Shown one piece after another: positions 11,757 to 56,386 of a stretch of DNA of 64,000 nucleotides. This DNA comes from Haliotis rufescens (Eukaryota). The stretch covers positions 24,676,001 to 24,740,000 of the forward strand of contig NW_025964334.1 in the NCBI RefSeq assembly GCF_023055435.1. The letters run 5' to 3'. Made by a program: the position numbers and the translations under genes. Positions within the stretch are counted from its first letter, which is position 1, and each line of letters starts with the position of its first letter. Under the pieces are notes generated by a model. That model saw nothing but the letters and a program-made list of their open reading frames with translations, was not told the origin of the DNA and did no database searches.

Positions 11757-12014
11757 TTAGTTAAAGCAGGTTGTTACAGCGATGACAAAAAGTGCCACCA
11801 AGTACCCTGCTTTCAGACACACCCCGGAGCTCCCGAGCATGTTCATCAAGTTGAAGATGTTGTTGTCATCGCCGTCGCTGCCCTTAGTGGCGTTATCAGC
11901 TGTTTGCGCTGATGCAAAGACATCAACAGCAGCTGTAGCTTCGGTGGGTTCGACTTTGTCATCTTTTGCAGCATCTGGAACCGGACAAACATGCACGGTG
12001 AAACCATGCTAATC

Positions 12015-12074
<60 letters not shown>

Positions 12075-12300
12075 GGAGAGAGAGGAGAAGGAAAGAAGTG
12101 AGAAAGTGAGTGAGAGAGAAAAGGAGGGAAAGAGAAAGAGGAGAAAGTGTATGTGTGTGTGTGAGAGAGAGAGAGAAAGTGAGGAGAGAGAGTGAGAGAG
12201 AGAAAGAATGTGAGGAGGGAGAGGGAGAAGGAGAGAAGTGAGAAAGAAAGTGAGTGAGAGAGAGAGTGATGGAGGGAGGGAGGGAGAAAGAGAGGAGAAA

Positions 12301-12352
<52 letters not shown>

Positions 12353-15300
12353 TTGAGAGAGAAGGAATTTGGATTCCTCGTCAGCACACCGCCGTGTTTA
12401 ATTTCTTTTTGCTGGTTACCACAAGGATCACATGGCTTCCATCATAATAGTTTGTGTGAAATAACCAGACAGAAAGAACCTTGACCACATGTTGGCAATC
12501 TCCTATAACAGTGTAACTAAACTTCATGTTGACTGAAATTGGACTGTTTGACACGAAACAGTTTGTTTATCACAAGTTCCACGTGAACCCAGTACACAGA
12601 GCTAACTGAAATATAGTAATTACCCGCGGTAGATGAATTCGACTTGTCTGCAGTTGCTGTATTCGTTTCAGTACCGGAACCGGAACCGGAACCACCCAAC
12701 CAGCTCGAGCCTCCCCCACCGGACATGGTCGAGCCCTCTGAAATAGTAAACAAGGTGTTGAATACTAGTAGTATACAGTGAGTGAGTGAGTGAGTGAGTA
12801 AGTAGGGTTTAACGCCGCTTTTAACAGTATTCCGGTTATATCCCGGCATGTCAGCTTAATGTGGGAGGAAAGCCCGAAGTGATGCAGGTCTCAAACGTTT
12901 ACCGCTTCGGTGAAACCCACGAGCACGGGTATGGTGCTGACAAACCTAGAAACATAATCGGGGCGAACCGGGATTCGAACCCACAATCATAGGTTTCTGG
13001 CTTGCCCAAGGGACGCAACTCTGCACAGCAAATTGCGGCGCCTTAGACGACTGGGCCACCCGTGCCCCCAGTAGTATACAGAACGTTGTACATGGATGTA
13101 TACAAATGTAAGCCATTCGTGTCTGATACTTAAGCGGAACATGTTCATGTGCACGGCGGACAAGTCATACATATGTATACTGGTCATAAAACTTAAACCA
13201 CGACCCCTGTTGATAATTACTGTGGCATTTTGTACCCCTTGTGTCTATTTTGCATTCTTCCGGGGTTTGGGGCGGTCGGGTAGCCTAGTGGTTAAAGCCT
13301 TCGCTCGTCACGCAGAAGACCCGGGTTCAATTCCCGACATGGGTACAATGTGTGAAGCCCATTTCTGGTGTCCCCCGCCGTGATATTGCTGGAATATTGC
13401 TAAAAGCGGCGTAAAACCATACTCACTCACTCACTCACTCACTCTTCCGGGGTTTTGGAAAGGGGGAATGATTGATCCTAAGGGGGATTGATTATGTCAT
13501 GAAGGGAGTGTTTTGATCCTGACAGGGAATTGATAATTTCACTTCAGAGTGTGTCAGTTCTAGAATCAGGTCTTTATAGAATGTTTCTAGCTAAGAACAG
13601 AATCACTTAAGTGAGTGAGTGAGTGAGTGAGTATGGTTTTACGCCGCTTTTAGCAATATTCCAGCAATATCGCGGCGGGGGACACCAGAAATGGGCTTCA
13701 CACAGAATCACTTAAGAGTGAAGTTTAAGGGGGTGATTTAATCCTGTCAAACAATAGTGGGATTGGTGACCGCGCCTTCAAATTGAGCCCTGCTATGTTT
13801 TATGGTCCGGCCCTGCCCTACCATGAAATGCAGGTTATAGAAAAGAATGTGGCGTCTACATCGACAAAATGACATTCGCCCAACATTGTCGCACCTTAAA
13901 AACCTATGCAGTATTGGTGGGAATACACTTGAAATGCCCACTGTTGCGTTGACCGAGATAATGTTATCATGATGATGTTCCGAATTAATTTCATTGCTTG
14001 GATAATTTTGTTAGTGAAGACATCGGAGATTAAGACTTGGCTTAAGAGTGTGTTTATGAACTATGAACTTTCGTTAACTGTTTACTTGGCTGTTAACAAA
14101 CAAATAACTGTTTACTTGGCTGTTAACAAACAAAGTCACCTGTTCTCGGTTTTGGAGTTGTTGTAGTTGTGGTGGTGGTAGTAGTAGTAGGAGTGGTGGT
14201 AGTGGTAGTAGTAGTAGGAGTGGTGGTGGTAGTAGTAGTAGTAGCAGTGGTGGTAGTAGTAGCAACAGTGGTGGTAGTAGTAGTAGCAGTGGTGGTAGTA
14301 GCAGTTGTAGAAGTAGTAGTCGTAATGCCAAAGCCATCACACTCGCTACGAGCTACAGAAGAGAGTTATATGTTTCCATTGAATATGACACCAAAATAAA
14401 TCAATCGCAGATGAGGGCTTCAATACATCAACAGGATTTTTTTTCGAATCTCACTTTCACTAAACCTGCCAATTTCATTCTTACTCACTCCCCGTTGTAT
14501 ATAAATATAAATATCGTTTAAATATTTCAGCATATCAAGGCGTGGAAGATAGCCACATCGGAACACATGAGCACTAATATGGTGTTGACCCACCAAGGGT
14601 CATAATCAGGGCAAAACCTTGTATTCGAACCCACCACGCGCTGTTTTGAAAAACTATTTCTGAAATTTCCTATAATGGAAAACATAGTTAAGTTTCCCAA
14701 CATAAGATATAATCATTTTTCTGTAATTAGATTGTTATTGTTTGTTGTTTAACGCCGCACTCAGCAGTATTCCAGCTATATGACGGCGGTCTGTAAATAA
14801 TCGAGTCTGGGCCAGACAATCCAGTGATTGACATCACGAGCATCGATCCACGCAAATGGGATACGATGACAACAACCAAGTCAGCGAGCCTGACCACCCG
14901 ATCCCGTTAGTCGCATCTTATGACAAGCATAGTCGGCATTTACGGAAAGCATGGGTTGCTGAAGACCTATTCTACCCCGGATCTTCACGGGTCAGCATGA
15001 TCAGTCACTGTACGTGTATCAGTCTGAGCACGTGGACCGTTAGTAAAGATCAACCCAGCAGTGACCCACCCACAAGTGGTCCACACAGCAGTGACCCACC
15101 CACAAGTGACCCACCCAGCAGTGACCCATCCACAAGTGGTCCACCCAGCAGTGACCCATCCACAAGTGGTCCACCCAGCAGTGACCCATCCACAAGTGAC
15201 CCACCCAGCAGTGACCCACCCACAAGTGGTCCACCCAGCAGTGACCCATCCACAAGTGGTCCACCCAGCAGTGACCCACCCACAAGTGACCCACCCAGCA

Positions 15301-18300
15301 GTGACCCACCCACAAGTGGTCCACCCAGCAGTGACCCACCCACAAGTGGTCCACCCAGCAGTGACCCATCCACAAGTTGTCCACCCAGCAGTGACCCACC
15401 CACAAGTGGTCCACCCAGCAGTGACCCATCCACAAGTTGTCCACCCAGCAGTGACCCACCCACAAGTGACCCACCCAGCAGTGACCCACCCACAAGTGGT
15501 CCACCCAGCAGTGACCACCCCCAAGTGACCCACCTAGCAGTGACCCACCCACAAGTGGTCCACCCAGCAGTAACCCACCCAGCATTTCTGTAATTAGAGT
15601 CTTCTCGTTTGTCATATGTTCACCTACACAAAACAGTCAAGCATTGACTGTCACAGTTTGCAATCTTCTTATTCATTGCTATGTCGAATTCTGCATAGTG
15701 GTCAACTTGACAGACAACGGACGTCTCTCTGTAGCATCGATTGTAGGACTCCCAGTCTCTGAAAATAGCCAAAGCACGTAACAGTTAAAACCTGTTGGTC
15801 TTTATCTTACCTGTAGATTCCTCTGTGTGCGTGCGTGCGTGCGTGCGTGCGTGCGTGTGTGCAGGAGACCAAGTCGTCTAAGGCGCCGCATTTCGCTATG
15901 CAGAGTTGCGTCCCTTAGGTACCCCAGACACCTATGATTGTGGGTTGGAAACCGGTTCGCCCCGAATATGTTTCCAGGTTCGTCAGCACCTTACCCGTGC
16001 TCGTGGGTTTCACGAGGTGGATACACTCCTGACACCTGCATCAATTCGGGCTTTCCTCCAACATTTATACAACATGATACAACTGGAATACTGGTCAAAC
16101 TCACTCACTCACTCACTCACTCACTCACTCACTCACTCACTCACTCACTCACTCACTCACTCACTCACTCACTGAATGTCTGCATTTATCACTGGAAGAA
16201 CAATATACCTTTACGCAATCAGATGTTTACATATTTGTAAATAAAGACTTTACAAGCATAAACAATTGTCGCATGTATGATGGTTACAAGCATTAACAAT
16301 TGCTGTAAATATGATACACACAAGCATAAACAAGTACCACATATATGATATTTACTAGCATAAACAATTGTCGCATGTATGATGGTTACAAGCATTAACA
16401 ATTGCTGTAAATATGATACACACAAGCATAAACAAGTACCACATATATGATATTTACTAGCATAAACAATTGTCGCATGTATGATGGTTACAAGCATAAA
16501 CAATTGCTGTAAATATGATACACACAAGCATTAACAAGTACCACATATATGATATTTACTAGCATAAACAATTGTCGCATGTATGATGGTTACAAGCATA
16601 AAAAATTGCTGTAAATATGATACACACAAGCATAAACAAGAACCACATATATGATATTTACTAGCATAAACAATTGTCGCATGTATGATGGTTACAAGCA
16701 TAAACAATTGCTGTAAATATGATACACACAAGCATAAACAAGTACCACATATATGATATTTACTAGCATTAACAATTGTGTGTAAATATGATACTTACCT
16801 GGCTTAAAACTTGTTGTAAATCAGAAGATAAATATTAATTTTCATTCTTGAGGTAGGTTACCTGCATCTTTAACCGTGCTAAATTGAATTGGGAACAGAT
16901 CTAACTTAGAAAAACGCGAACTCTTTGGTGTAAGCAAATGTATTGAGTGAATCGGCACGGGTAGAGAGTCCAGGGTTTTGAGTAGGCTGTCGATCAGAAT
17001 TTACGGAATCACCTACAACAGCCTTTAAACTGAATATGGTGCTCTGTATGCTCAAGCAATGTGTTGCTACACATCCTTTGAACATTGTAGTAACCGCAAC
17101 TTTGCACTTTGTAGCCAATAATTGTACACATAATTATCTAAACATGCCTACCCACAATGACTATAAAAGAAGTACTATTCTAAAAATATAAGCTTCCGCG
17201 GTAAATGTATTCTTGTTTGTCTAATCATAAATGTCATCGATTGTGTCGTTATACCCTCAGGAAAGGGGCGGTCGGGTAGCCTAGTGGTTAAAGCGTTGGC
17301 TCGTCACGCCAAAGACCCGGGTTCGATTCCCGACATGGGTACAATGTGTGAAGCCCATTTCTGGTGTCCCCCGCCGTGATATTGCTGGAATATTTCTAAA
17401 AGCGGCGTAAAACCATACTCACTCACTCACTATACCCTTAGGTTGATCGCCGCATTCCTCTTGTGATGGTATCACCTGTCATCGGTAAATAAATTATGGA
17501 GCGAAAGCCTGACAGTGTTAGTCTGGACAATATTGAGTGAGTGAGTGAGGAAATTCATCCAGTATTTTACAAGCAGGCAACTGCTTCAGCACGAGACTGC
17601 ATCCGTGGTGTAGTGGACAGAGCGCCCGTCCAGAGAGCGAAAGGTTGTTCGATCCCCGGCCGCATCAAAACAAAACATGTAAAAAGATGTACTTATTACC
17701 TTACTACCGTTCGGCTTTAAGGGGTTTAAAGAACAACTGGTCGTCTCGGAGACAGTATGCTGTGTCAGAGTTGAGTATCCATGTTAGGCGCGGTCAGGTG
17801 AAATGGGGTTTACTGAACTTATATAGCGACGTGCTGCTTACACGTGTGTGTATGATTGTGCTTGCCCACCGAGATACTTTGCTGCAGTTTAACATGAATA
17901 CACAGTGCACTGACTCCGAGCCGACCAGTGCTTGTTTTATCCCCTTAATGCCGAGCGCCAGGCAGAGTAACAACAAGTACCGTCTTTTAACGTCTTCTGG
18001 TATGACGCGGCCGGGGACCAAACCCCGGACCTCCCGCCTGGCGGGTGGACGCTCTACCACTAGACCGGGTATCCATGTTAAACTGTGACAGGGTATCTCA
18101 GTGGGATANNNNNNNNNNNNNNNNNNNNNNNNNNNNNNNNNNNNNNNNNNNNNNNNNNNNNNNNNNNNNNNNNNNNNNNNNNNNNNNNNNNNNNNNNNNN
18201 NNNNNNNNNNNNNNNNNNNNNNNNNNNNNNNNNNNNNNNNNNNNNNNNNNNNNNNNNNNNNNNNNNNNNNNNNNNNNNNNNNNNNNNNNNNNNNNNNNNN

Positions 18301-19426
18301 NNNNNATTGACGACACAGCAGGTTTAGCCTTAAAGTGAACGGCAATAAAGTTAGCACGTCAATGAACTGACACACATTTTGGATGTACTAGTAACTCTGA
18401 CGTACTCGCAAGGCATGATGGGGTTGGGTCCTGTGAACGAGGCCGGTTTACAGGCGATCACATCTGGACAGAGCGACTTGATGTAGTCGTTCGCCTCTCT
18501 GACGCCGTCGCCCCTTCGCGCAGTGGCCACTGTCAATAAAAATTCCAGTTAATGAAAACATATTAAGCGTATAAAAAAACACAAAAAACTATAAACTCTT
18601 TATTCGATCTTAATGTAAAAGTAATCATAGACTATAAACGTTGATACGATGAGTAAGTAAGTAAAAAGACAAATCCATATATTGAAACGTTACGTCTTTG
18701 AAATATGAAACTTCAAAAGTCCACATTAATTTATCATCACAGCTATTGTTGGGCGTCATGGTCAAGTTTACAGTTTTAAAACGTATCTAACGAGCGAAGG
18801 CGAATCGATGCATAGCTTGTCTAATCGTAAGATCGAAGTGGCGCACTAGTACATTACAGCACGGTCATGGTTGACGCTATCCGGCTTAGTGCTTGCTATT
18901 GCTGAGTGCGATAAGAGAAACATATTTCCCCCGACACATGAAATATCCTACAAAATCAACTTTAACAAAAAATAAACTTAAAAACTACCGAACCGCTGCT
19001 GAAAGCGAAAAATACACGCTGCTCAAGTAACAAAAATGGCCCTTTGCGAAACGAACAGTCCGATTGAGTGAAGTGAGAAATTTACAGTTTATGACGAAAC
19101 ATTTTCAAGAGAATAACAAACAGCATGAAGCGATATTAACTCCATAAATGACTATCTGTCACTAGAGTGCCTTGTCGGTGTGGAAATAACTTCAAAAGGA
19201 AGTCAACAGTTTGTGTACGGGTCAGACACTCTTGTATGACAATAGTTCCGTCAAAGTGTTGTGTTAACTGCAGTGAAACATCAATTGTTATGTTCACTGC
19301 AATGAAAATATCCCTTTTCTCAACTTTGGAAAAATCAATCTTTCACACTTAAGTATATAATAGAGTCTGGTACTCACAGTGCACAATGCAGAGAAGCGTG
19401 GTTACTGTGAAGGTCGTCATGATCAT
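11757..19426 (-). CDS. Gene A: spliced, 282-aa predicted GPI-anchored protein (signal peptide, 8-Cys domain, Thr-rich mucin stalk, Gly/Ser linker, GPI signal). Exons 19426-19378, 18529-18406, 15758-15628, 14352-14140, 12737-12624, 11974-11757
   Basis: Six segments with GT..AG borders and compatible phases (1,2,1,1,1) join into one 849-nt stop-free frame: MIMTTFTVTTLLCIVHLATARRGDGVREANDYIKSLCPDVIACKPASFTGPNPIMPCEDWESYNRCYRETSVVCQVDHYAEFDIAMNKKIANCDSQCLTVLSRSECDGFGI-(~55 aa Thr-rich)-PKPRTEGSTMSGGGGSSWLGGSGSGSG...DGDDNNIFNLMNMLGSSGVCLKAGYLVALFVIAVTTCFN*. The N- and C-termini are hydrophobic, and Cys spacing and phases match gene C. An N gap lies in intron 2. Confidence 0.85.
12017..12362. repeat. 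(GA)n / purine-rich compound microsatellite in the last intron of gene A
   Basis: Direct reading. Confidence 0.95.
12779..13069 (-). mobile_element. SINE family B
   Basis: Full length; TSD AGTAGTATACAG. Confidence 0.9.
13269..13443 (+). mobile_element. SINE family A (tRNA-Asp-like head, ~170 bp, (CACT)n tail)
   Basis: TAGCCTAGTGG A box; CGCTCGTCACGC..AAGACCCGGGTTCAATTCCC resembles tRNA-Asp(GTC); TSD TCTTCCGGGGTTT. Confidence 0.9.
13612..13702 (-). mobile_element. SINE family A, 5'-truncated
   Basis: 3' half only; TSD ACAGAATCACTTAAG. Confidence 0.85.
14742..14992 (-). mobile_element. Family D short retroelement
   Basis: Full length, duplicated-hairpin variant. Confidence 0.85.
15052..15583. 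repeat. 30-bp (2x15) minisatellite, ~17 copies, intron 3 of gene A
   Basis: Unit CCACCCAGCAGTGACCCACCCACAAGTGGT. Confidence 0.95.
15866..16173 (+). mobile_element. SINE family B (diverged) with an expanded (TCAC)n tail
   Basis: Similarity to other family B copies. Confidence 0.8.
16250..16792. repeat. 102-bp tandem repeat (three ~34-bp subunits), ~5 copies
   Basis: Subunits begin AGCAT(A/T)AACAA; 102-nt periodicity. Confidence 0.92.
17265..17430 (+). mobile_element. SINE family A
   Basis: Full length; imperfect TSD TATACCCT(C/T)AGG. Confidence 0.9.
17595..18066. mobile_element. Two family C SINEs in inverted orientation (+ ~17595-17790, - ~17796-18066)
   Basis: Each arm matches the family C consensus on opposite strands. 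Confidence 0.75.
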
Positions 19427-20240: not shown

Positions 20241-21400
20241 TACGGGTAAAAAGAACACAAAGATAATGGGGGTCAAAATGAGATCTTTCACATCGTCATT
20301 GTCAAAACATCTGGTTACAACAGACTTGTAAGTCATAAGTCACAGGTTTAATATTGAGTATGTCCACCTCGTTCCTTAATCCGCACCGATGACGTCAAAC
20401 GCTTGATGACGTTAGCTGGAATCCGATGCTATTCCTCGGAGAGAAGTCCCGACGGCTGGCTGGTGGTAGTGGTCGCCTTCTGACTTGCCTGTCGAGATGA
20501 TCCTACAAATGTTTGGGTTCATGTCAGGAGGGGCGGTCGGGTAGCCTAGTGGTTAAAGCGTTCGCTCGTCACGCCGAAGACCCGGGTTCGATTCCCGACA
20601 TGGGTACAATGTGTGAAGACCATTTCTGGTGTCCCCCGCCGTGATATTGTTTGAATATTGCTAAAAGCGGCGTAAAACCATACTCACTCACTCACTCACT
20701 CATGTCAGGATAACAGGAAGGTCAGGACAAAACATTAACGTTCATGTTTAAGAGGATGTCCCGTGTCAGCCTTGCAGTATTGGATCCAGTGTTATCACGC
20801 TGGAAGATTTTACCGCGTGGTTGTAGTTAGATAAATGGCAGCACAGCCGAACGCAAAACGTCATTCCGGTACCTTTGTTCAGTAATGTTGCTTTGAAGGA
20901 TAACCAGCCTCTTCTTCAAGTCTCCACAGATTCCTCCCAAGGCCATGACACCACCGCCTTCAAAAGGCTGCACGTCCTGCACACAGTTGGGTGCTGGGCG
21001 CCATATTGACGTCTGTACACACGCTGCAGACCATCAGCTCGAAACAGGCAAAACATGCTCTGATCAGAAAACATGACTCGTCGATAGTATCAAACCTGAC
21101 AACGTCGAACCCGCCTGGCCCCCTGTATGGAACCTACTAACGTCGAACTCGCCGCCCCATATCAACCTGTTATGTCGATGTTGTGACGTCAACGTCATTC
21201 AAAGCTATCCGCGTGCTGTAGATGCCGTTGCTGTCGGAGGGATGAAGCGGTTTCAGAGATGAATTCAACTGATGAAACGCTCTTCAATGGGCGTGGCCCT
21301 ACTCCTAGGCCCGTGTGTAGTCTTCCAAGTTACACTGATTTCAGTATCTTTGACTATTGTGTTGATAACGATAACTCTTATCGGCCCAGTATCCCTGTAG
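20241..21400 (-). pseudogene. Degenerate Tc1-like transposon, interrupted by a SINE A copy
   Basis: Broken-frame peptides VFSDQSMFCLFRADG..RVYRR, QPFEGGGVMALGGI and IPANVIKRL..RGGHTQY; boundaries approximate. Confidence 0.75.
20530..20700 (+). mobile_element. SINE family A nested in the Tc1 remnant
   Basis: TSD TCATGTCAGGA. Confidence 0.9.
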
Positions 21401-21602: not shown

Positions 21603-24600
21603 CTGACACATTAAATTTACAAAGTCATTAGATAAACATCTTCTGAGTGTATTTCCTTTTGGACGTCAGTTGAATATAGGAAACGAATATCTGGTGAATG
21701 TTAATAAAAGCAACAAAAAACATTTTCATATTCACAAGAAGCCACCATATACAGTTATATCCTAATCATGTGTTAATGAATCACTATCAAATAGTGATGA
21801 CAACGAGTGTACAAGCAAAGGTAAAACCGTAAAACTAAATCTAAGCTCTTCATAAAGGTTGCATTCTGTTTTAATATTATTACAGAAAGGACATAACATG
21901 TCCTCAAGAGTAATGAGAGTCTATATTGTGGCGTCCTGTCTTCGCATGTGAGGATAGGCTTCCATGACGTGGTCCAGGTTCTTAAGTGTATGCTAGTTTA
22001 CTACGCATTGATAACTTTAGTCATCTAATTACATCAGTTTACAGTTTAGATTTTCGGGACATTATATATAAACTTAAAGAATAATAGCCGATTATCAACT
22101 TGAATCATGTAACCAATTCTAACATCAAAAGTAGGGTTCCGGCATATGGGATCTGTATACTGTCAGACTCGTATTGCAACAATCAACATTGTGGCTTCCT
22201 GAGGTTTAATTTCTTTTAAAGATTCATTTAATCATTTAAAACAAAATTTAGGTTTTTGCGGTAAACTACTTCTTGCGATATGATATACATTACAATCGAA
22301 ATCGTCACGGTTTCGGTTATGTTCAGTTCAAATAAGTAGTGAAGAGAATTTTAAAGAGGAATTATATGTTTGGGTGTCGCTTTCACCTTTACCCTATACA
22401 GGTAACACAAATTCAATGCATAGGGGCCATCTTTACAGCAGTTTGTCTATCTACATGGTTGTCATTCTGGCATGTATACTTAGGGGCAAAAGAAAGTATA
22501 CTGAGTTTGTTTTGCATGTCACTGAAAATTGAAAGAACTGTTGTTAAATTTGATTTTGTCTATTTAACCATCACTCATTCTTGAAAGGAATTTTCAAACA
22601 CACGACCACTACCATATTTGAAATATATTTATTTAATTTATTTTCAACGATAAGATTCTAAGATACCCATCGGCAGTTGTGTATTATGTGAATGGTTTGT
22701 TTCGTCTATGAAATCCAAATCAGTAATTCACAACTTAGTGCGTAGGTTTTTGCAGTTTGTATAAGATTAATCTAGTTTGGGATACAAGGTACACGTTTAA
22801 GTACATAAAGGTAATAGTTAGCATGTGTGTGTCCAGTATAGACGTTTGTATAGACGATGTCTTGTCAAGGCACGGTGTAGCAAAGAGTCTTAATCGTAAA
22901 GATCTGTGTTAGCCGTCAGTGTATATCGGTCACGGCATGGCTGAACGCCAGCACGTCCCTCTGTACACCAAAGACCGGATATACTGTCATGGATTATTAG
23001 AGTCAGGGTGAAGTCACCAAGGGTTCTGACAAGTTCTGGGTGGCATCGCTAATGACCATGGCAGAGTTAGAACGTCAAGGACAACGACAGTCAGTGTAAA
23101 GTCAAGGACAATGACCGATTCGGGTGGGATCTCAAAAGACTATGAGTTAGGTCACCAAGGACCATGAAAGATTCTTGATGGGATCGTCAAGGGTCACGAC
23201 AGGTACAGGGTATGTCACCAATAATCATGACAGAGTCTAGGTGGGGTCGTCAAGGAACATGACAGGTACAGGGTTATGTCACCAAGAATAATGACAGATT
23301 CCTGGTGGCATCGTCAAGGAACATGACAGGTACGGGGTCATTTCACCAAGATCCATGACAGGGTCTAGGTGGGGTCGTCAAGGACCAGGACAGGTACAGG
23401 GTTAGCTCACCAAGAACCATGACAGAGTCCAGGTGGCATCATCAAGAACAAGGAGAGGTACAGGGTATGGTCATCAAGGACTATGGATGTTAGCAGTGAG
23501 GGGGTTAAATTGTTCCTCACATAGGCGAACCGCCTCCTAGTAGCCCGGCTAGCAGTGAAAGGGTTAAATTGTTCCTCACATAGGCGAACCGCCTACTAGA
23601 AGCCCGGCTAGCAGTGAGTGGGTTAAATTGTACCTCACATAGACGAACCGCCTACTAATAGCCCGACTAGCAGTGAGTGGGTTAAATTGTACCTAACATT
23701 AGCGAACCGCCTACTAGTAGCCTGTCTGGTAGTGTTATCGCTGTCTGTACGTGGAGGCAGTGTACTTGGATGAGTGTATGATCTCCATGCCAAGTATTAC
23801 GGACAGAGACTCAAGCCGAGTATTGGCATCAGCATATGATTTTATAACGCTTCTGCTTCTTGAAACAGTCACTCTTGATTTAATTCATTTCGATCACAGA
23901 ACTGACGGTTTACTACCTATTGATAACTTGAGTCATCTAACTACATCTAACTACATCTACATTTTCTGGACATTATATATAAACTTTAAGAATAATAGCC
24001 GATTATCAACTTGAATTATGCAACCAATTCTAACATCAATAGTAGGGTTCCGGCATGTGGGATCTGTATACTGTCAGACTCGTATTGCAACAATCAACAA
24101 TGTGGCTTCCTGAGGTTTAATTTCTTTTAAAGATTCATGGAATCATTTAAAACAAATTTTAGATTTTTGCGGTAAACTTCTTCTTGCGATATGATATACA
24201 TTACAATCGAAATCGTCACGGTTTCGGTTATGTTCAGTTCAAATAAGTAGTGAAGAGAATTTTAAAGAGGAATTATAAGTTTGGGTGTCGCCTTCACCTT
24301 TACCCTATACAGATAACACAAATTCAATGCATAGGGGCCATCTTTACAACAGTTTGTCTATCTTCATGGTTATCATTCTAGCATGTATACTTAGGGGCAA
24401 AAGAAGGTATACTTAGTTTGATTTGCATGTCACTAAAAATTGAAAGATCTGTTGTTAAATTTGATTTAACCATCACTCATTCTTGAAAGGAATTTTCAAC
24501 CACACGACCACTAACATAATTTATTTATTTTATTTATTTTCAACGATAACATTCTAAGATACCCATCGGCAGTTGTGTATTATGCGAATTCGTTTTAACT

Positions 24601-25550
24601 TTTAAAAGTTCAAATCAAATTATATTTAAAAATTAAAACCTTGTAGAAGTATTCTTTGAGTGCAGACTAAGCATCAGTACCGTTCATTTTTGGGATATGA
24701 TATCGCTGACTTAGGAGATTTTAAATTGTAATTCAAACATATGATAAAATCAACTGAGAGGTATAGTTTGCTTCGTTCATGAAATCAAAATCTACTATCA
24801 ATTTCAGTGATTAAAAACCTAGTAAGTAGTTTTTTTTCAGTTTATATAAGATTAATCTAGTTTGGGTTACAAAGTCCAGGTTTAAGTTCATAAAGGTAAT
24901 AGTTAGCATGTGTGTGTCGAGTATTGCCGTTTGTCTTTCAAACAGGCTAAGACTTAACGATGTCTTGTCATTGCACGGTAAAGCAAAGAGTCTTAATCGT
25001 AAAGATCTGTGTTAGCCGTCAGGATATATCGGTCACGGCATGGCTAAACGCCAGCACGCCCCTCTGTACATCAAAGACCGGATATACTGCCAGGATTATT
25101 AGACAGCCTTGTCGTCCATGCGTCCCAATGCCATACTGTCCAGTTTTACTCTGATATAGTTCACTCTGGCGGTCATATAAGGGGTGTCAGTTGTCTGTGT
25201 TGTCAATGATATAGTCAGGGTGAGGTCACAAAGGGTTGTGACAAGTTCTGGGTGGCATCGCTAATGACCATGGCAGAGTTAGAACGTCAAGGACAATGAC
25301 AGTCAGTGTTAAGTCAAGGACAATGACCGATTCGGTTGGGATCTCAAAAGACCATGAAAGATTCTTGATGGGATCGTCAAGGGTCATGACAGGTACAGGG
25401 TTATGTCAGCAAGGACTATGACGATGGACCATGACAGATTCAGGTTAGGTCACCAATGACTATGGCATGTACAGGTCGGGGTTACAAAAGGTCTTGCCAT
25501 ATTCTGTGTGAAGCCACGAAGGGCCACGCCAGGGTGGGGTTCAGTAACGG

Positions 25551-27680
25551 CCATGACAGGTTCAGGTGGGGATCACAATCACCCTGACAGGTTCAGGTGG
25601 GGATCACAGTTACCATGGCAGGTTCAGGTGGGGATCACAGTTACCATGACAGGTTCAGGTGGGGATCACAATTACCATGACAGGTTCAGGTGGGGATCAC
25701 AGTTAACATGACAGGTTCAGGTGGGGATCACAGTAAACGTGACAGGTTCAGGTGGAGATCAAAATTACCATGACAGGTTCAGGTGGGGATCACAATTACC
25801 ATGACAGGTTCAGGTGGGGATCACAGTTAACATGACAGGTTCAGGTGGGGATCACAGTAAACATGACAGGTTCAGGTGAAGATCCAAATTACCATGACAG
25901 GTTCAGGTGGGGATCACAATTACCATGACAGGTTCCGGATGGAGATCACAGTTACCATGAGAGGTTCAGGTGGGGATCACAATTACCATGACAGGTTTAG
26001 GTGGGGATCACTGTAACCATGACAGGTTCCCGATGGGGATCACACTTGCCATGACAGGTTCAGGTGGGGATCATAGTTACCATGACAGGTTCAAGTGGGG
26101 ATCACAGTTACCATGACAGGTTCAGGTGGGGATCAAAGTTACCATGACAGGTTCAGATGGGGCTCACAGTTACCATGACAGGTTCAGGTGGGGATCACAG
26201 TTACCATGACAGGTTCAGGTGGGGATCACAGTTACCATGACAGGTTCAGGTGGGGATCACAGTTACCATGACAGGTTCAGGTGGGGATCACAGTTACCAT
26301 GACAGGTTCAGGTGGGGATCACAGTTACCATGACAGGTTCAGGTGGGGATCACAGTTACCATGACGGGTTCATGTGGGGATCACAGTTACCATGACAGGT
26401 TCAGGTGGGGATCACAATTACCATGACAGGTTCAGGTGGGGATCACAGTTAACATGACAGGTTCAGGTGGAATCACAATTACCATGACAGGTTCAGGTGG
26501 GGATCACAATTACCATGACAGGTTCAGGTGGGAATCACAGTTACCATGACAGGTTAAGGATCGGGATCATAGTTACCATGACAGGTTCAGGTGGGGATCA
26601 CAACTACCATGACAGGTTCAGGTTGGGATCACAATTACCATGACAGATTCAGGTGGGGATCGCAATTACCATGACAGGTTCAGGTGGGGATCACAATTAA
26701 CATGACAGGTTCAGGTGGGGATCACAATTACCATGACAGGTTCAGGTTTGGATCACAATTACCATGACAGGTTCAGGTGGGGATCACAATTACCATGACA
26801 GGTTCCGGTGGGGATCACAATTACCATGACAGGTTCAGGTTGGGATCACAATTACCATGACAGGTTCAGGTGGGGATCGCAATTACCATGACAGGTTCAT
26901 GTGGGAATCACAGTTACCATGACAGGTTCAGGTGGGGATCACAGTTACCATGACAGGTTTAGTAGGAGATCACAGTTACCATGACAGGTTCAGGTGGGGA
27001 TCACAATTACCATGACAGGTTCAGGTGGGGATCACAGTTAACATGACAGGTTCAGGTGGAGATCACAATTACCATGACAGGTTCAGGTGGGGATCACAAT
27101 TACCATGACAGGTTCAGGTGGGGATCACAGTTACCATGACAGGTTCAGGTGGGGATCACAGTTACCATGACAGGTTCAGGTGGGGATCACATTACCATGA
27201 CAGGTTCAGGTGGGGATCACAGTTACCATGACAGGTTCAGGTGGGGATCACATTACCATGACAGGTTCAGGTGGAGATCACAGTTACCATGACAGGTTCA
27301 GGTGGGGATCACAGTTACCATGACAGGTTCAGGTGGGGATCACGGTTACCATGACAGGTTCAGGTGGGGATCACAGTTACCATGACAGGTTCAGGTGGGG
27401 ATCACAATTACCATGACAGGTTCAGGTGGGGATCACAGTTACCATGACGGGTTCATGTGGGGATCATAGTTACCATGACAGGTTCAGGTGGGGATCACAG
27501 TTACCATGACAGGTTCAGGTGGGGATCACTGTAACCATGACAGGTTCAGGTGGGGATCACAGTTACCATGACAGGTTCAGGTGGGGATCACAGTTACCAT
27601 GACAGGTTCAGGTGGGGATCACAATTACCATGACAGGTTCAGGTGGGGATCACAATCACCCTGACAGGTTCAGGTGAATA
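25551..27680. repeat. 31-bp minisatellite, ~68 copies
   Basis: Unit CCATGACAGGTTCAGGTGGGGATCACAGTTA. Confidence 0.97.
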
Positions 27681-29286: not shown

Positions 29287-32200
29287 ATGTGTTAATGAAT
29301 CACTATCAAATAGTGATGACAGCGAGTGCTCAAGCAAAGGTAAAACCGTAAAATTAAATCTAAGCTCTAAAGGTTGCATTCTGTGTCAATATTATTACAG
29401 AAAGGGCATAACATGTCCTCAAAAGTAATGAGAGTCTATATTGTGGCGTCCTGTCTTCGCATGTGGGGATAGGCTTCCATGCCGTGGTCCAGGTTCTTAA
29501 GTGTATGCTAGTTTACTACACATTGATAACTTTAGTCATCTAATTACATCAGAGAAATCAGATTTTATATATAAACTTAAAGAATAATAGCCGATTTTCA
29601 ACTTGAATTATGTAACCAATTCTTACATCAAAAGTATGTTTCGGGCATCTGGCCATGGGATCTGTATACTCTCAGACTCGTATTGCAACAATCAATGCAA
29701 GATTCATTTAATCATTTAAAACAAAATTTAGGTTTTTGCGGTACCCTTCTCCTTGCGATATGTTAAACATTACAATCCAAATCGACACGGTTTCGGTTAT
29801 GTTCAGTTCAAATAAGTAGTGAAGAGAATTTTAAAGAGGAATTATAAGTTTGGGTGTCGCCTTCACCTTTACCCTATACAGATAACACAAATTCAATGCA
29901 TAGGGGCCATCTTTACAGCAGTTTGTCTATCTACATGGTTATCATTCTGGCATGTATACTTAGGGGCAAAAGAAAGTATACTGAGTTTGTTTTGCATGTC
30001 ACTGAAAATTGAAAGAACTGTTGTTAAATTTGATTTTGTCTATTTAACCATCACTCAACAATTTATTTTCAACGATAAGATTCTAAGATACCCATCGGCA
30101 GTTGTGTATTATGTGAATGGTTTGTTTCGTCTATGAAATCCAAATCAGTAATTCACAACTTAGTGCGTAGGTTTTTGCAGTTTGTATAAGATTAATCTAG
30201 TTTGGGATACAAGGTACACGTTTAAGTACATAAAGGTAATAGTTAGCATGTGTGTGTCCAGTATAGACGTTTGTTTTGACGATGTCTTGTCAAGGCACGG
30301 TGTAGCAAAGAGTCTTAATCGTAAAGATCTGTGTTAGCCGTCAGTGTATATCGGTCACGGCATGGCTGAACGCCAGCACGTCCCTCTGTACACCAAAGAC
30401 CGGATATACTGTCATGGATTATTAGAGTCAGGGTGAGGTCACCAAGGGTTCTGACAAGTTCTGGGTGGCATCGCTAATGACCATGGCAGAGTTAGAACGT
30501 CAAGGACAATGAAAGTCAGTGTTAAGTCAAGGACAATGGCCGATTCGGGTGGGATCTCAAAAGACTATGAGTTAGGTCACCAAGGACCATGAAAGATTCT
30601 TGATGGGATCGTCAAGGGTCACGACAGGTACAGGGTATGTCACCAATAATCATGACAGAGTCTAGGTGGGGTCGTCAAGGAACATGACAGGTACAAGGTT
30701 AGGTCATCAAGGACTATGACAGATTCCTGTTGGCATCGTCAAGGAACATGACAGGTACAGGGTAAGGTCATCAAGGACTATGACATGGCTGAGTGGGATC
30801 GTCAAGGACCATGACAGGTACAGGGTATGGTCACCAAGAATAATGACAGAGTCTAGGTGGGGTCGTCAAGAAACATGACAGGTACAGGGTTAGGTCATCA
30901 AGGACTATGACATGGCTGAGTGGGATCGTCAAGGACCATGACAGGTACATGGTTATGTCACCAAGAATAATGACAGATTCCTGGTGGCATCGTCAAGGAA
31001 CATGACAGGTACGGGGTCATTTCACCAAGATCCATGACAGGGTCTAGGTGGGGTCGTCAAGGACCAGGACAGGTACAGGGTTAGCTCACCAAGAATCATG
31101 ACAGAGTCTAGGTGGCATCATCAAGGACCAGGAGAGGTACAGGGTATGGTCATCAAGGACTATGGATGTTAGCAGTGAGGGGGTTAAATTGTTCCTCACA
31201 TGGGCGAACCGCCTACTAATAGCCCGACTAGCAGTGAGTGGGTTAAATTGTACCTCACAAAGACGAACCGCCTACTAGTAGCCTGTCTGGTAGTGTTATT
31301 GCTGTCTGTACGTGGAGGCAGTGTACTTGGATGAGTGTATGATCTCCATTCCAAGTATTACGGACAGAGAATCAAGCCGAGTATTGGCATCAGCATATGA
31401 TTTTATAACGCTTCTGCTTCTTGAAACAGTTACTCTTGATTTAATTCATTTCGATCACAGAACTGACGGTTTACTACACATTGATAACTTGAGTCATCTA
31501 ACTACATCTAACTACATCTAACTACATCTACATTTTCTGGACAGTATATATAAACTTAAAGAATAATAGCCGATTATCAACTTAAATTATGCAACCAATT
31601 CTAACATCAACAGTAGGGTTCCGGCATGTGGGATCTGTATACTGTCAGACTCGTATTGCAACAATCAACAATGTGGCTTCCTGAGGTTTAATTTCTTTTA
31701 AAGATTCATTTAATCATTTAAAACAAAATTTAGATTTTTGCGGTAAACCTTTCTTGCGATATGATATACTTAACAATCGAAATCGTCACGGTTTCGGTTA
31801 TGTTCAGTTCAAATAAGTAGTGAAAAGATTTTTAAAGAGGAATTATAAGTTTGGGTGTCGCCTTCACCTTTACCCTATACAGATAACACAAATTCAATGC
31901 ATAGGGGCCATCTTTACAACAGTTTGTCTATCTTCATGGTTATCATTCTAGCATGTATACTTAGGGGCAAAAGAAGGTATACTGAGTTTGATTTGCATGT
32001 CACTAAAAATTGAAAGATCTGTTGTTAAATTTGATTTAACCATCACTCATTCTTGAAAGGAATTTTCAACCACACGACCACTAACATAATTTATTTATTT
32101 TATTTATTTTCAACGATAACATTCTAAGATACCCATCGGCAGTTGTGTATTATGCGAATTCGTTTTAACTTTTATAGGTTCAAATCAAATTATTTTTAAA

Positions 32201-33039
32201 AATTAAAACCTTGTAGAAGTATTCTTTGAGTGCAGACTAAGCATCAGTACCGTTCATTTTTGGGATATGATATCGCTGACTTAGGAGATTTTAAATTGTA
32301 AATCAAACATATGATAAAATCAACTGAGAGGTATAGTTTGCTTCGTTCATGAAATCAAAATCTACTATCAATTTCAGTGATTAAAAACCTAGTAAGTAAG
32401 GTTTTTTCAGTTTATATAAGATTAATCTAGTTTGGGTTACAAAGTCCAGGTTTAAGTTCATAAAGGTAATAGTTAGCATGTGTGTGTCGAGTATTGCCGT
32501 TTGTCTTTCAAACAGGCTAAGACTTAACGATGTCTTGTCATTGCACGGTGAAGCAAAGAGTCTTAATCGTAAAGATCTGTGTTAGCCGTCAGTGTATATC
32601 TATCACGGCATGGGTTAACGCCAGCACGATCCTCTGTACATCTAAGACCGGATATACTGTCATGGATAATTAGACAACCTTGTCGTCCAACACTGGTTGA
32701 ATCCCAAATGCCATACTGTTAGAATCCCAATGCCATACTGGCGGAATCCAAATGCCATACTGGCAGAATCCCAATGCCATACTGGCATTTCCCGGAGTAT
32801 TTCACTCTAGTATAGTTCACTGTGGCGGTCAAATAAGGGGTCCCAGTTGTCTGTGTTGTCCATGATAGAGCCAGGGTGAGGTCACCAAGGGTTGTGACAA
32901 GTTCTGGGTGGCATCGCTAATGACCATGGCAGAGTTGGAACGTCAAGGACAATGAAAGTCAGTGTTAAGTCAAGCACAATGACCGATTCGGGTTGGATCT
33001 CAAAAGACTATGAATTAGGCCACTAAGGACCGTGAAAGA

Positions 33040-46783: not shown

Positions 46784-47848
46784 ATGAGAAAGATGTTCAG
46801 TCGACTTTTGAACATTCTGATCGGCGCTGCTCTTTTCGGGCAGATCGGCGCTTTATGGTTCGGTAAGTTGATTTTACTGTAGAAATGTACGTAAAAGTTA
46901 AATTGGTGTTCCAGAATAATTTTACTGAAGGAGGGGTGATTTGTTTGTTTGTTTGTTTAACGCAGCACCCAGCAATATGCCATCTTTGTGACGGTTGTCT
47001 GTAAATAATCAATTATGGGCCAGACAATCCAGTGATTGACACATAATCATCGATCTACACAACTGGTATACGATGACATGCATCAGCGAGCCTGACCACC
47101 CGATCCCGATAGTCGCCTCTTACGACAAGCATGGATTACTGAAGTCCAATTCTAACCCGGACTCTTCACGGGTCGTACGAGGCATGGGCGAGGTATGAAA
47201 TCCACGATAGCCTTGGAAACAAGACGTTCTCATTAGATTATTGTTTTCCCATTTTACATGTCAAAAAGCATTGTGTTTGCTTGGTTTCGTCATTTTCTTT
47301 TTTTTTGATATATTGACAATCACCAGAAACAGATTGTGCATATGCGCATGACGACTGGATTTCATTTCAATTTTCCTACTCGCCTCTCGGGGCAATTTTC
47401 CTAATGCCTACTATAGACCTTTAAGGTGTCAATATTATGTATCTATTTTGAAATTCTACATGTTTGAGACAGTGTAGTGAGTCGCCCTAAATCTGGTTTT
47501 CGTTCGTCTTTGGAATTTTCACCACTTAACTCACCATCGTTGAATGGTCCAGACCTCATAGGTGATGGTGAAAAGGAGTGTTCCTTACGGTGTCATCGTT
47601 GCATCAGGGGCGATGTTGTTGCCTTGTGGATAAAGTGTTCGTTCGTCACGCCAAAGACCCAGGTTCGATTCCCCACATGGGTACAATGAGTGAAGCCCAT
47701 TTCTGTAATCCCCTGCCTTGATATTGCTGGAATAATCCTGAAACTATACACATTTACTTTTTGCAAAGACACTTGGCGTTCGTATAATCACCCCAACTCG
47801 ATGTCATTTTAACTTACATTTGTGCTGTGGAGATTTAAGCTGGTATAC

Positions 47849-47888: not shown

Positions 47889-50800
47889 GACGTCGAGTTT
47901 GTTCTTGTCTTCATGTTCATAGTCTTCATCATCATGTCATTATTTTAAATGAATGAATAGCTCCTCCAGACCCGGATGAAATTGATGTTCGGTGTCCCAC
48001 GTTCCGCAGCTGCAACACAGATTATTTCAAAGATCACAGAGAGGATCCAAATAAGCTTGTGGCATGCGCGTAAGTAGCACTTTCAGAAATAGTGTGGGAG
48101 TGAGTGATTTAAAATTTATTGCCGCTTTCTACAGTATTCCTGTTACATCCCGGTGTGTCTACTTAACGTGGAAGGAAAGTTCGAAGTGATGCAGGTCTCA
48201 GAGATTTACCACCTTTGTGAAACCCTAGAGAACGGGTATGGTTCTGACAAACCCAGAAACATCATCGGGACGACCAATGATCATAGGTTCCTTACGTGCC
48301 CAAGGGACGCAACTCTGCACATCGAATTGAGAAAACTTGGCCACCAGTGCACCCACTTTCAGAAATAAGTTTAAAATCGACCATCCTTTTTTGGGGCATG
48401 GCATTATGCGCGTCTGCTTGTGTACAGTTAATCATCGTTTACTCAAAGTCCTAATCACTATCGTTAGTACAGGTTAAAAATGATATTTTAGTTTAATACT
48501 TGTTGCACACGTAATGAGACATGTAAATAATATGTAAAGTAAGATAATTATGATAGGTGTTAATGTTATTTTTCTCATCACATTGGAGGATTTATACAGA
48601 TCAAAAAAGCTGTATCCGCCCATGTTATGTATCTAGTCTGGTTTTCGTTCGTCTTTGGAATTTTCATAACTTATCTCGCCATTATTGAACGGTTCAGACC
48701 TCATAGGTGATTGTGAAAAGGAGTCTTCCTTACTGTGTCATCGTTGTATCAGGGGCGATGGTGTTGCCTTGTGGTTAAAGTGTTCGTTCGTCACGCTAAA
48801 GACCCAGGGTCGATTCCCCACAATGGTACAATGTTTGAAGATCATGTTTTATCCTAAAAGCTGCATTAATATAGATACGTAGGTTTGTGTGCGTGCGTGT
48901 GGTGAGGTGAGGTGAAATGGGGTTTAACGTCGCGTCCAAGATTAGTGCACTTATATAGCGACGTGCATGCACTTGTGTGTGTTTGTGTGGCTGCTTGTAC
49001 TAGTCCGGACTGATGCCGATTTATAGTGCTAGCTCACTGAGATACCATGCTGCAGTTTAACATGAATACCCCACTCAGACACAGTATACTGACTCCGAGC
49101 CGACCAGTCCTTGTTTTAGCCCCTTAATGCCGAGCGCCAGACAGGGTAACAACAAGTACCATCTTTTAACGTCTTTGGTATGACGCGGTCGGGGATCGAA
49201 CCCCGGACCTTCCGGCGGACGGTCTAAAACTAGACCACGGAGGCGGTCGTGTGTGCGTGTGTGNNNNNNNNNNNNNNNNNNNNNNNNNNNNNNNNNNNNN
49301 NNNNNNNNNNNNNNNNNNNNNNNNNNNNNNNNNNNNNNNNNNNNNNNNNNNNNNNNNNNNNNNNNNNNNNNNNNNNNNNNNNNNNNNNNNNNNNNNNNNN
49401 NNNNNNNNNNNNNNNNNNNNNNNNNNNNNNNNNNNNNNNNNNNNNNNNNNNNNNNNNNNNNNNNNNNNNNNATAAAACGTCAACGCGAGAGAATAACCAG
49501 TCTCGATTATCTGCCGAAACAGACTCCATTTGGCGTAAAAGGCACTACAGTAGTGAAAATAGTCTAACATTTAGTCTCTGTAATCTTATATTACACAATA
49601 TCCTTCTTGACTCTAAAAATATATTTAAAAAATTCCCTATGCTGATTTCTAGCTTGAGCTGGCTAGACTTGCTTTTGTATGTGTTTCTGGATTATTTTTT
49701 TCATAAAATAAATTTATTCCAAGGTCATGGTGTAGGACTATAGTGAAAATTATAGGAAAGTATCTCAAATCGGTGGTGACACCAGGTGTTCGCGAAAAGG
49801 GTAAGCATGCACCCGCCACTCAAAGAAGTTTGCTGTCTGCATTTGTTGCCTGACGCGACACAGCAGAACTCCTGCCATGCGATGGCGATCTGTAAACAAA
49901 CCAGACAATCAAGTGATCGATGGACCAAAACATCTACTGACACGATAGCGCATTTTTTTTACGAAAAGCAAAAACAAATAAACACGTCGAAGATGTAGTA
50001 AATAGTGAACTTTAGGCTTTAAATATACGTTCCAAGTATCTCAATCTCATTAAATTCAGAAGCCCGTGAAGAATCCGGGGCAGAATAGGTCTTCAGCAAC
50101 CTATGCTTACCGTAAAAGCGACAATGCTTGTCGTAAGAGGCGACTAACGATATCGGGTGGTCAGGCTCGCTGACTCAGTTGATGCATGTCAACATATCCC
50201 TTTTGCGTAGATCGTAGACAATTGCGTCACTGGATTGTCTGGTCCATCGATTATTTACAGACCGCCGTCATATAGCAGGAATATTGCTGAGCGCGGCGAT
50301 AAACAACGAATGCCATCTTCGAACCGTTAAGGACGATGGAGCATCCATTAATCAAACCCTGTTTATGTGTTTTCAGTTATGATGAATTTCTTACCACCTG
50401 CTGTTTTCTCTAGGGCACAAGAGACACATATGTCATGTGTTTACAACCAAGGGGTAATATGCGATCTATTCGACTTTGAGGACTATCTGCGCCGGTACGA
50501 AAACAAGCAAGAGAAGTGTTTTGCCCATTGCGTGGATGGTACGTACTGATTGCCCCAGTCACTGTTCACTCACTTCTAAGAATAAGAGGAAGAAGTTAGA
50601 TTATTTATTACAAATCTTTACACTTCCATGTCTCAGGGTGGTGTGTGTGTGTGTGTGTGTTTGTGTGTGTGTGTGGGGGGGGGGGGGGGGCACGGGTGGC
50701 CCAGTCGTCTAAGGCGCCGCGAATCGCGGAGTGCAGAGTTGCGTCCCTTGGGCATGCCAGAAAACTATGATTGTGGGTTCGAATCCCGGTTCTCCCCGAT

Positions 50801-52891
50801 TATGTTTCTAGGTTTGTCAGCACCATACCCGTGCTCGTGGGTTTCACCGAAGTGGTAAACGTCCGAGACCTGCACCACTTCGGGCTTTCCTCCCACATTA
50901 AGCTGACACGCCGCGATATAACTGGGATACTGTTAAAAGCGGCGTTAAACCAAACTCACTCACTCGCTCCATGTCTCAGAGTTCGAAAATTATATTCCAG
51001 ACCACGTATTGCCTTAAAGTGAGTGAGTAAGTATGGTTTTACGCCACTTTACGAACACTTTAAGATATACGAGTAAACGTATACAAGGAAACGTATAATC
51101 GTAATAGTTTGAAAACATATTCAACGGCCACGACAGTGTCTGCAGTGGTGTGGCTATAGTACTGTGTTGTGAGTGAGTGTGTAAGGTTTTACGTCACTTT
51201 TAGCAATATTCCGGTATTACCACGACAGGGGACACCAGAAATGGGGTTCACACATTGTACCCCATCTTCCTGAGGTAAGGGAGTTAACTGACTGTAAAAG
51301 TCCAGTTTCCACCCTTGCTTAACAAAGCTGAAAATTCTGAGCTCGATCGTAGCGCCACCAGTGGCTATTACGATTTATGTCCCTTCTATGTCCCTCCTGT
51401 TGACCAATCAGATTCCATCTCTGATATCACTTATCACTTCTTCAAACAAAATGGCGGCGCCCAGTGAAGGCGGTCTGAGCGATAACCAAAATCTATATTG
51501 TAGTAAAACGGGTCTTACTTCGCGAAGTGCTTCATATCACGTGAAATGTCTGTGGACGCTTAGTTGACGGTACAAATGCGTTGCAAATCCTGCAATCGAC
51601 CGAAGTCTGCACGGCAGTTTACGAACCGGATGTCGATTTTGTTACGCGAGTTTGATTGGGCTATACAAAAACTCGTTAGTCGAGACAACATATAGCTCCA
51701 TAATTCCAGCCTAGTTCGGCAAGGGTGGCAAATTGACTTTTATAGTAAGTTAACTTTCTTGGTTCGGGAAGATGATTGTACCCAGGTAGGTCTCAACCGA
51801 AAACATTATTTATCACAAACCTGTAGACGTTGTTACAAGGTGATTTCCGATTTGAAACGCGAAGGTCCGCCCAGAACTAAATTGTTGAATTAGCAAATAA
51901 CCCCCACACAAGATCAACGAATAATAAATTATATTGAAACTCACAGGGCGAGATTTACAATCACATGAGTCAATACAATGGTTCAAATGTGTGGAAGCAT
52001 TATTCAATGCTGATGCCATATTTACATATGGTTCCCAGGACGACATGTGACACTATCGAATGCCTTGAAAGTGGCACGTTATCCGTTTTTGAATTCGGTA
52101 AACAGTGTTGGAAGCTGGAAATGTTTTCAGTTTGGTATCCAATCCGCACTGGACAAGTAGATGAGACGCAAGTGGGGTCGTAGAATGCCACGAATTGTCT
52201 TTATAGGTACAGACAGAATTCTAGTGACTGTCGAAACTATTCGGATGATGTAGGCCATTGTATCAACTAAGGGAGGAAACTCTAATGTACAAAGGTGCAT
52301 AACTCTCAGGAACTCAGATCACTCAGATCACTACCAAAGATTGGTATTTTATTTTATTTTCTGCGGCAAATATAGATATAATTCAAGACGTCAACGCCAG
52401 AGAACAATCTCGACTATCTGCGGAAACAGAATCCAAAGACAAACTGGTGGTGAAATCATAGCTTGATATGATTGTCTATGGTATTTTCTTTAACTGCCAT
52501 TGATTGGTTTACTATAGGTTATTCCGAGATATGTGGTAGGGAGCCGAAACTTACCACAACAACCACCACCACAACTACCACCACTACTACAACCACTATA
52601 ACCACTACCACCACTACCACCACTACCACCACCCCTACAGCTACTGGAGACATCGTGGGTGGATCTGACAGCATCACTCAGACGGAGCCAGACAACACTG
52701 GGTCGCCTGGAGCTGGTGATGCGCTGAGGGGAGACAACTCTACTTTGTCGGACAACAGTCAGGATGAGGATGGGGATTCGGGCTTCAACCTAATGGATTT
52801 GTTTGACAACAACGGGAGTGACAGCATGGCGGCGTCTCTGGTAGTCACGATGTTTCTTCTTGTTTCACATCTCGTCCCAACCATTATGTAA
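46784..52891 (+). CDS. Gene C: spliced, 228-aa predicted GPI-anchored paralog of gene A. Exons 46784-46862, 47961-48069, 50414-50538, 52518-52891
   Basis: Donors gtaagt, gtaagt, gtacgt; phases 1,2,1. Translation MRKMFSRLLNILIGAALFGQIGALWFAPPDPDEIDVRCPTFRSCNTDYFKDHREDPNKLVACAAQETHMSCVYNQGVICDLFDFEDYLRRYENKQEKCFAHCVDGYSEICGREPKL-(poly-Thr)-...EDGDSGFNLMDLFDNNGSDSMAASLVVTMFLLVSHLVPTIM*. Exon 3 has the same C-x7-C-x18-C-x3-C spacing as gene A. Exon 2 could alternatively start in frame at 47970. Confidence 0.85.
46940..47174 (-). mobile_element. Family D short retroelement, intron 1 of gene C
   Basis: Similarity to the reference copy. Confidence 0.82.
48098..48355 (-). mobile_element. SINE family B (diverged)
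   Basis: Similarity to family B; flanked by CACTTTCAGAAATA repeats. Confidence 0.75.
48901..49247 (-). mobile_element. SINE family C
   Basis: Near full-length reverse-complement match. Confidence 0.9.
49472..49850 (+). repeat. Unclassified dispersed repeat family E (pieces also at 38270-38455 minus, 52385-52450 and 58025-58520)
   Basis: Shared blocks CGTCAACGC.AGAGAA..A.C.GTCTCGA.TATCTGC.GAAACAGA and GACACCAGGTGTTC...GAAAAGGGTAA.CAT. Confidence 0.6.
50064..50308 (+). mobile_element. Family D short retroelement
   Basis: Full length, duplicated hairpin. Confidence 0.85.
50686..50967 (+). mobile_element. SINE family B
   Basis: Full length; TSD TCCATGTCTCAG at 50625-50636 and 50968-50979. Confidence 0.9.
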
Positions 52892-56030: not shown

Positions 56031-56386
56031 GTGAGGTGAGGTGAAATGGGGTTTAACGTCGCGTCCAAGGTTATTGCACTTATATAGCGACGTGCATGCA
56101 CGTGTGTGTGTTTGTGTGGCTGCTTGTACTAGTCCGGGCTGATGCCGATTTATAGTGCTAGCCCACTGAGATACCATGCCTCAGTTTAACATGAATACCC
56201 CTCTCAGACGCAGTATACTGACTCCGAGCCGACCAGTCTTTGTTTTAGCCCCTTAATGCCGAGCGCCAGACAGGGTAACAACAAGGACCATCTTTTAACG
56301 TCTTTTGGTATGTCGCGGCCGGGAATCGAGCCCCGGACCTTCTGCTCTCCGGGCGGACGCTCTACCACTAGGCCACGGAGGCGGTC
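56031..56386 (-). mobile_element. SINE family C nested inside a family D copy (55997-56553)
   Basis: TSD TGGTCTTCAG at 56021-56030 and 56387-56396. Confidence 0.92.

Follow-up and report, generated by a model that had tools for sequence, protein, structure and literature searches.

Gene models

The window is the whole stretch of DNA that was analyzed, 64,000 nucleotides of Haliotis rufescens (NCBI RefSeq assembly GCF_023055435.1, contig NW_025964334.1, positions 24,676,001 to 24,740,000 of the forward strand). It holds animal-type DNA, with few genes, satellites and tRNA-derived short interspersed nuclear elements (SINEs). Two of its genes, here called A and C, were modelled as intron-split genes whose products carry a cysteine-rich head of eight cysteines (Cys1 to Cys8) followed by a Thr-rich run. 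An earlier note on this DNA had likened the Cys domain to neuritin (CPG15) and to the N-terminal, BMP-binding helical domain of RGM proteins. All positions below are those of the window.

Gene A was modelled on the minus strand with six exons and a product of 282 amino acids:

19378..19426, minus strand: exon 1, start codon and hydrophobic signal peptide (hydropathy >1.5 at residues 1-20), GT donor, phase 1 intron
18406..18529, minus strand: exon 2, Cys1-x5-Cys2-x13-Cys3, phase 2 intron in the codon following Cys3
15628..15758, minus strand: exon 3, Cys4-x7-Cys5-x18-Cys6-x3-Cys7, predicted helical hairpin
14140..14352, minus strand: exon 4, Cys8 and Thr-rich stalk, AG/GT borders and open frame
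12624..12737, minus strand: exon 5, Gly/Ser/Thr linker
11757..11974, minus strand: exon 6, acidic linker, candidate omega site for a glycosylphosphatidylinositol (GPI) anchor (residues 258-259), hydrophobic tail, stop

Gene C was modelled on the plus strand with four exons and a product of 225 amino acids:

46784..46862, plus strand: exon 1, start codon and signal peptide, phase 1
47970..48069, plus strand: exon 2, Cys1-x5-Cys2-x17-Cys3, phase 2 following Cys3
50414..50538, plus strand: exon 3, Cys4 to Cys7 spaced as in gene A, phase 1
52518..52891, plus strand: exon 4, Cys8, Thr stalk, acidic linker, candidate omega sites (199-206), hydrophobic tail, stop

The two genes diverge in transcription and are separated by 27 kb (between 19426 and 46784), with no tandem arrangement. 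The eighth Cys of gene A, in exon 4 (from 14352), lies beyond the interval to which the earlier note had assigned the domain.

Shared build of genes A and C

As intron-split genes that have diverged from each other, A and C are paralogues whose kinship reaches beyond their cysteines. GT-AG borders were found at all 8 modelled introns. The first three intron phases are identical (1,2,1), and in both genes the second intron falls in the codon following Cys3. The Cys spacing of the head is 5,13,8,7,18,3,8 in gene A and 5,17,8,7,18,3,7 in gene C. When the heads were aligned, 8 further identities were found besides the 8 Cys. The head score was reached by none of 2000 full shuffles and by 4 of 2000 shuffles with Cys fixed, and the tail score by 2 of 2000 shuffles. 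No third paralogue or further paralogue exon was found in the window, and the 'expanded' family of the earlier note thus comes down to these two genes.

The order of parts is common to both proteins: a hydrophobic signal, the eight-Cys head, a Thr run, an acidic Gly/Ser linker, omega candidates and a hydrophobic tail, beyond which there is no cytoplasmic part. The omega candidates are small residues placed 19-26 residues before the C-terminus, and the last 25 residues hold at most one basic residue. The exposed surface of the head differs almost completely between A and C, and each protein therefore likely has its own partner.

The same build could belong to plain surface mucins of mucus or glycocalyx, whose Cys head would serve just for folding, cross-linking or dimerisation, without any specific recognition. 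Thr makes up 61 of the 176 residues after the head of gene A, about a third (34 Thr follow the head of gene C), a neighbouring gene (gene B, below) is apparently Thr-rich without a head, and surface residues are poorly conserved, all of which would suit a mucin. Against it, the even number of Cys, their fixed spacing and the shared intron phases speak for a domain that folds as a monomer and not for free thiols. We regard the mucin explanation as unlikely.

Contig evidence for transcription of gene A

Contigs from 4 of the 24 listed runs were compared, with gene A only; these runs are probably RNA and carry three species labels. Contig ends coincide with four exon borders of gene A. All 10 contig-piece ends fell on modelled borders, 6 of them exactly (15628, 15758 or 11974) and 4 at 12740, which is offset from the exon 5 border by three shared letters (CAG). 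In each of the 4 runs, contigs broke off at the border of exon 6 (11974) and continued elsewhere. The exon 3 pieces of runs X18 and X20 ended at 15628 and 15758, and in these two runs the same contig depth recurred over exons 6, 5 and 3, which is the pattern expected of a spliced transcript. Contig depth was low in the exon 2 bin in 4/4 runs, and exon 1 was not separately visible in the contigs of the 4 runs.

Among the differences listed between gene A and the contigs (11757-15758), 14 lay in coding exons, of which one in the stop codon was excluded. Of the remaining 13, 11 were non-synonymous, including 3/3 in the Cys head. This is close to the neutral expectation of residue-changing differences, 77%, and 11/13 has P = 0.001 if the ratio of non-synonymous to synonymous rates (dN/dS) were 0.2. 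The differences listed hint that gene A is under weak constraint.

Predicted structure and homologue searches

The exon 3 piece of gene A was modelled with AlphaFold2 (AF2) as a helix at 2-11, a short loop with Cys5 and a helix at 18-40, with a predicted local distance difference test (pLDDT) score of 82 for the best model. In this model the order matches alpha2, Cys linker and alpha3 of RGM, which offers a lead, though any hairpin would look so.

All homologue, profile and fold searches were run on single-exon pieces (32-65 residues), and an intron splits the motif. In Pfam, no match to NRN1, RGM_N or PF01579 was obtained, and the last exons gave nothing above cut-off. Neither the PDB sequence searches nor the fold searches (Foldseek, VIA-align) returned NRN1 or RGM. 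The word-index protein search gave no match in 3/3 cases, the ESM Atlas gave 0/2, and 0 of 113 candidates from metagenome contigs were homologous to the pieces. When the exon 3 profile was run against 1.84 billion representatives, the gastropod protein CRNF was not found. These searches failed to return the genes' own proteins, and the blanks are therefore no proof of novelty.

Some weak or spurious matches were also obtained. Exon 3 of gene C (50415-50537) gave weak PDB sequence matches through its Cys-x3-Cys helix, to Tim9 (E 0.03) and to the insect OBP69a (E 0.21). The single match of the hidden Markov model search of the 1.84 billion representatives was an 11-fold repeat protein, which was rejected because it aligned over 13 columns only. 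A scan of metagenome contigs for neuritin-type exons gave 43 matches, none of them readable as neuritin.

Resemblance to neuritin and RGM

The stretches of genes A and C quoted in the earlier note are both present in the sequence, and the C-x8-C-x7-C spacing on which it had built its comparison holds in both genes. Under a geometric null, this spacing is expected in about 1 in 100 random eight-Cys proteins for each family compared, which makes it weak evidence when many remembered families are tried. The absence of a vWD domain and GDPH site was also borne out, as the head is followed in both translations by nothing but a Thr/Ser/acidic stretch, which contains no GDPH and is too short for a vWD domain.

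The claimed agreement of further residues stood for individual letters, and fell short in that these had been pooled from two genes and two targets. Counted separately, gene A matched 3/7 quoted neuritin letters and 5/9 quoted RGM letters, and gene C matched 2/7 and 0/9. Over 18 non-Cys columns, the uncorrected P values were 0.09 (A with neuritin), 0.003 (A with RGM, 5/18 columns in agreement), 0.29 (C with neuritin) and 1 (C with RGM), such that A with RGM was the sole standout among four comparisons before correction. Genes A and C are identical at 2/18 of these columns, and Glu is the only quoted residue that they share. The joint end match, 'NC' for RGM and 'E-x-CG' for neuritin, did not survive, the first using Cys6 of gene A and the second Cys8 of gene C, in different registers.

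These results bear on whether the head is a true remote homologue, at fold level, of the neuritin/RGM N-terminal helical domain, with an added Cys pair. The common spacing, the RGM-like helix-linker-helix order of the exon 3 model, the letters shared by gene A with RGM, and a signal peptide and GPI-type tail as in neuritin would fit such kinship. Neuritin has six Cys. The eight Cys of A and C, the lack of any quoted RGM letter in gene C and the dependence of the two end alignments on different Cys argue the other way, as does a review stating that no other family has been reported to carry RGM domains (PMC10084454). A further objection comes from CRASP of Achatina, which has Cys spacing 4,30,9,6,28, measured bonds C1-C2, C3-C6 and C4-C5, an all-alpha fold and no known relative (PMC4596865); an all-alpha, similarly spaced protein without a homologue indicates that spacing and helicity do not fix the family. 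Homology with neuritin/RGM is a credible possibility, if a somewhat doubtful one. The earlier note's helical kinship is kept as a lead by the exon 3 helices and by the signal peptide and GPI-type tail; no NRN1 or RGM_N signal came from the single-exon pieces, between which an intron splits the motif. The second intron of vertebrate NRN1 presumably also has phase 2 and follows directly on the corresponding Cys, as it does in A and C, which would likewise fit kinship.

Resemblance to CRNF

The head may instead be a membrane-anchored relative of CRNF of the gastropods Lymnaea and Aplysia, acting as a contact-dependent ligand for neurite growth. CRNF and this DNA are likely of the same animal class. 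Genes A and C both have Cys-x3-Cys and a Pro after Cys1. The Cys frame of Lymnaea CRNF, taken as about 6,11,8,7,20,3 with Pro after Cys1, would match seven of the eight Cys of the head, though this frame was put forward with the query already known. The printed apCRNF epitope reads Ala-Asn-Cys-x3-Cys plus a hydrophobic residue (PMC3966541, PMC7079570), and gene A has Ala-Asn-Cys-x3-Cys at Cys6/Cys7. The two CRNF orthologues are just 22% identical (PMC3966541).

Several points speak against this relationship. Counted by eye over about 20 non-Cys positions, gene A shares 2 identities with the epitope and gene C 1, no more than chance would give, and the epitope has no Cys at the place of Cys8. 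CRNF has 11 conserved Cys and about 123 amino acids, is released, and is a cystine knot in the authors' model (PMC3966541). The exon 3 profile search did not return it. We treat a CRNF relationship as tentative and lean away from it; it is compatible with the surface recognition role proposed below and would name the family of the head.

A combined reading, in which A and C are membrane-anchored members of the CRNF family with a head that is a helical bundle of neuritin/RGM-N type, is improbable. If it were true, CRNF would be the invertebrate counterpart of neuritin and no cystine-knot neurotrophin, and all three (CRNF, neuritin and the RGM N-domain) would belong to a single ancient family of helical ligands for neurite growth in Bilateria. 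With such a link, neuritin would gain an invertebrate origin, the proposed cystine-knot fold of CRNF would be reassigned, the RGM N-domain would extend beyond RGMs, and neuritin-type signalling would become testable in snail neurons. No paper tying neuritin to RGM_N or to invertebrate families was found in the literature search, the scope of which did not include CRNF.

Proposed function

Proteins A and C are probably GPI-anchored surface glycoproteins, as predicted from their anatomy, with a likely helical eight-Cys head on a Thr stalk that would bind a protein of a neighbouring cell other than BMP. The best reading is that they are fast-evolving, lipid-anchored surface recognition proteins. 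The signal peptide would direct them into the endoplasmic reticulum, where the C-terminal tail is predicted to be swapped for a GPI anchor. The Thr run, predicted to be O-glycosylated, would extend as a stalk and hold the disulfide-braced head away from the membrane, outside the glycocalyx. The head, with four putative disulfides, may be a small bundle built broadly like the RGM N-domain or neuritin plus one extra Cys pair. It would bind its partner protein on the facing cell in trans, for recognition or as a trophic ligand, and cleavage of the GPI anchor may release it.

The earlier note had suggested ligand co-receptors or decoys as a possibility. The GPI-type tail, and a helical head that may resemble that of RGM, would agree with proteins acting like RGM, as BMP co-receptors or decoys or as neogenin ligands. 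PMC7354924 describes an RGM N-domain of three helices and three disulfides, and an RGMB-GDF5 contact through Arg100, Gly101, Leu103 and His106, just past helix 2. There, RGMC Gly99Val, Gly99Arg and Leu101Pro weaken BMP2 binding, and neogenin is bound by the RGM C-terminal domain (PMC7354924). Counted from Cys5, a register taken from the CRGD that the earlier note had quoted, the four binding places are Gln, Val, His and Glu in gene A and Asp, Leu, Asp and Asp in gene C. Since both the binding residues of RGM and its C-terminal domain are absent from A and C, it is unlikely that they serve as RGM-type co-receptors or decoys, and we give RGM-like action as a whole very little credence. Overall, the earlier observation was partly confirmed, and its interpretation has partial support as to fold and none as to function.

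Several results weigh against a transcribed, GPI-anchored recognition protein with a helical head. The RNA nature of the contig runs is a guess. None of the 4 runs gave contig cover of gene A exon 4, low cover was present in some gene A intron bins, and no exon junction appeared in the joint table, which was dominated by repeats. Apart from the best exon 3 model (pLDDT 82), the other four scored 45-66, from a two-sequence alignment. The exon 2 piece of gene A was modelled at pLDDT 54 with its helix placed before Cys1, and 4 prolines lie between Cys2 and Cys3, such that a long, RGM-like first helix is doubtful. GPI addition was judged by hydropathy and an omega heuristic rather than by a dedicated predictor. 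As no homologue was found with the single-exon pieces, function is read from anatomy alone.

Other features of the window

Gene B is a candidate gene between A and C. In one frame it has a signal-like start and a Thr-rich stretch (27 Thr in 89 residues) without a Cys head. An alternative frame (69 residues, rich in His, Tyr, Gly and Asp) is probably a shifted reading of the Thr run. No match to gene B was found in the Pfam search. A multi-kb block that holds nested satellites of 64, 59 and 31 bases appears, by eye, to be duplicated at ~21750-24900 and ~29290-32700, about 7.5 kb apart. The regions at ~54200-54530 and ~56560-57040 resemble by eye what we take to be decayed Tc1/mariner transposase. 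The remaining features were as follows:

37605-37336, minus strand: gene B candidate, with a possible first exon near 41378-41373
25551-27676: satellite, 31-base unit, 69 copies, from the repeat-array scan
59596-64000: satellite, 55-base unit, 80 copies, from the repeat-array scan
17270-17341, 20535-20606 and 56311-56382: tRNA matches (Rfam) within dispersed repeats, read as heads of tRNA-derived SINEs

Comparison with known systems

As they stand, A and C represent a real but ordinary gene kind, encoding surface proteins of GPI type that are restricted to a lineage and carry their Cys head on a mucin stalk. They are not assigned to neuritin, RGM or CRNF, since at least one defining feature of each of these is missing from A and C.

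DUF19/T20D4.11-like and related invertebrate domains are small Cys-helical modules, either secreted or anchored, that undergo expansion within individual lineages, usually with two modules per protein. A and C, with a head that is likely helical, would resemble them as small Cys-helical modules, and their single-exon pieces had no Pfam match. CRASP is, like A and C, from a gastropod, has a similar early Cys spacing and had no homologue in its authors' hands; it is Cys-braced and all-alpha, as the head of A and C may be, but it has 10 Cys in 158 amino acids, is secreted, and has spacings of 9 and 6 instead of 8 and 7. CRNF, with its 11 Cys, is released and stalkless, whereas A and C combine an eight-Cys head with a stalk and an anchor tail.

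The RGM N-domain (RGMA/B/C and DRAG-1 of C. elegans) has in common with A and C the C-x8-C-x7-C spacing, the helix, Cys linker, helix order (predicted here) and a GPI-type tail. RGM differs in having 6 Cys, an RGD/RGN-Leu..His loop and an auto-cleaved, vWD-like C-terminal domain with GDPH, whereas A and C have 8 Cys and a Thr stalk and none of those. Neuritin/CPG15 (NRN1, NRN1L) likewise shares C-x8-C-x7-C, together with a signal peptide, a single small Cys domain and a GPI-type tail (predicted for A and C); the Trp-Glu pair is found in gene A only. Neuritin is compact, with 142 residues, a signal peptide and a GPI anchor (PMC12715718), whereas the products of A and C, at 282 and 225 residues, add a mucin stalk and an extra Cys pair. 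By analogy, A and C may act in the manner of neuritin, as small ligands that are anchored and releasable.

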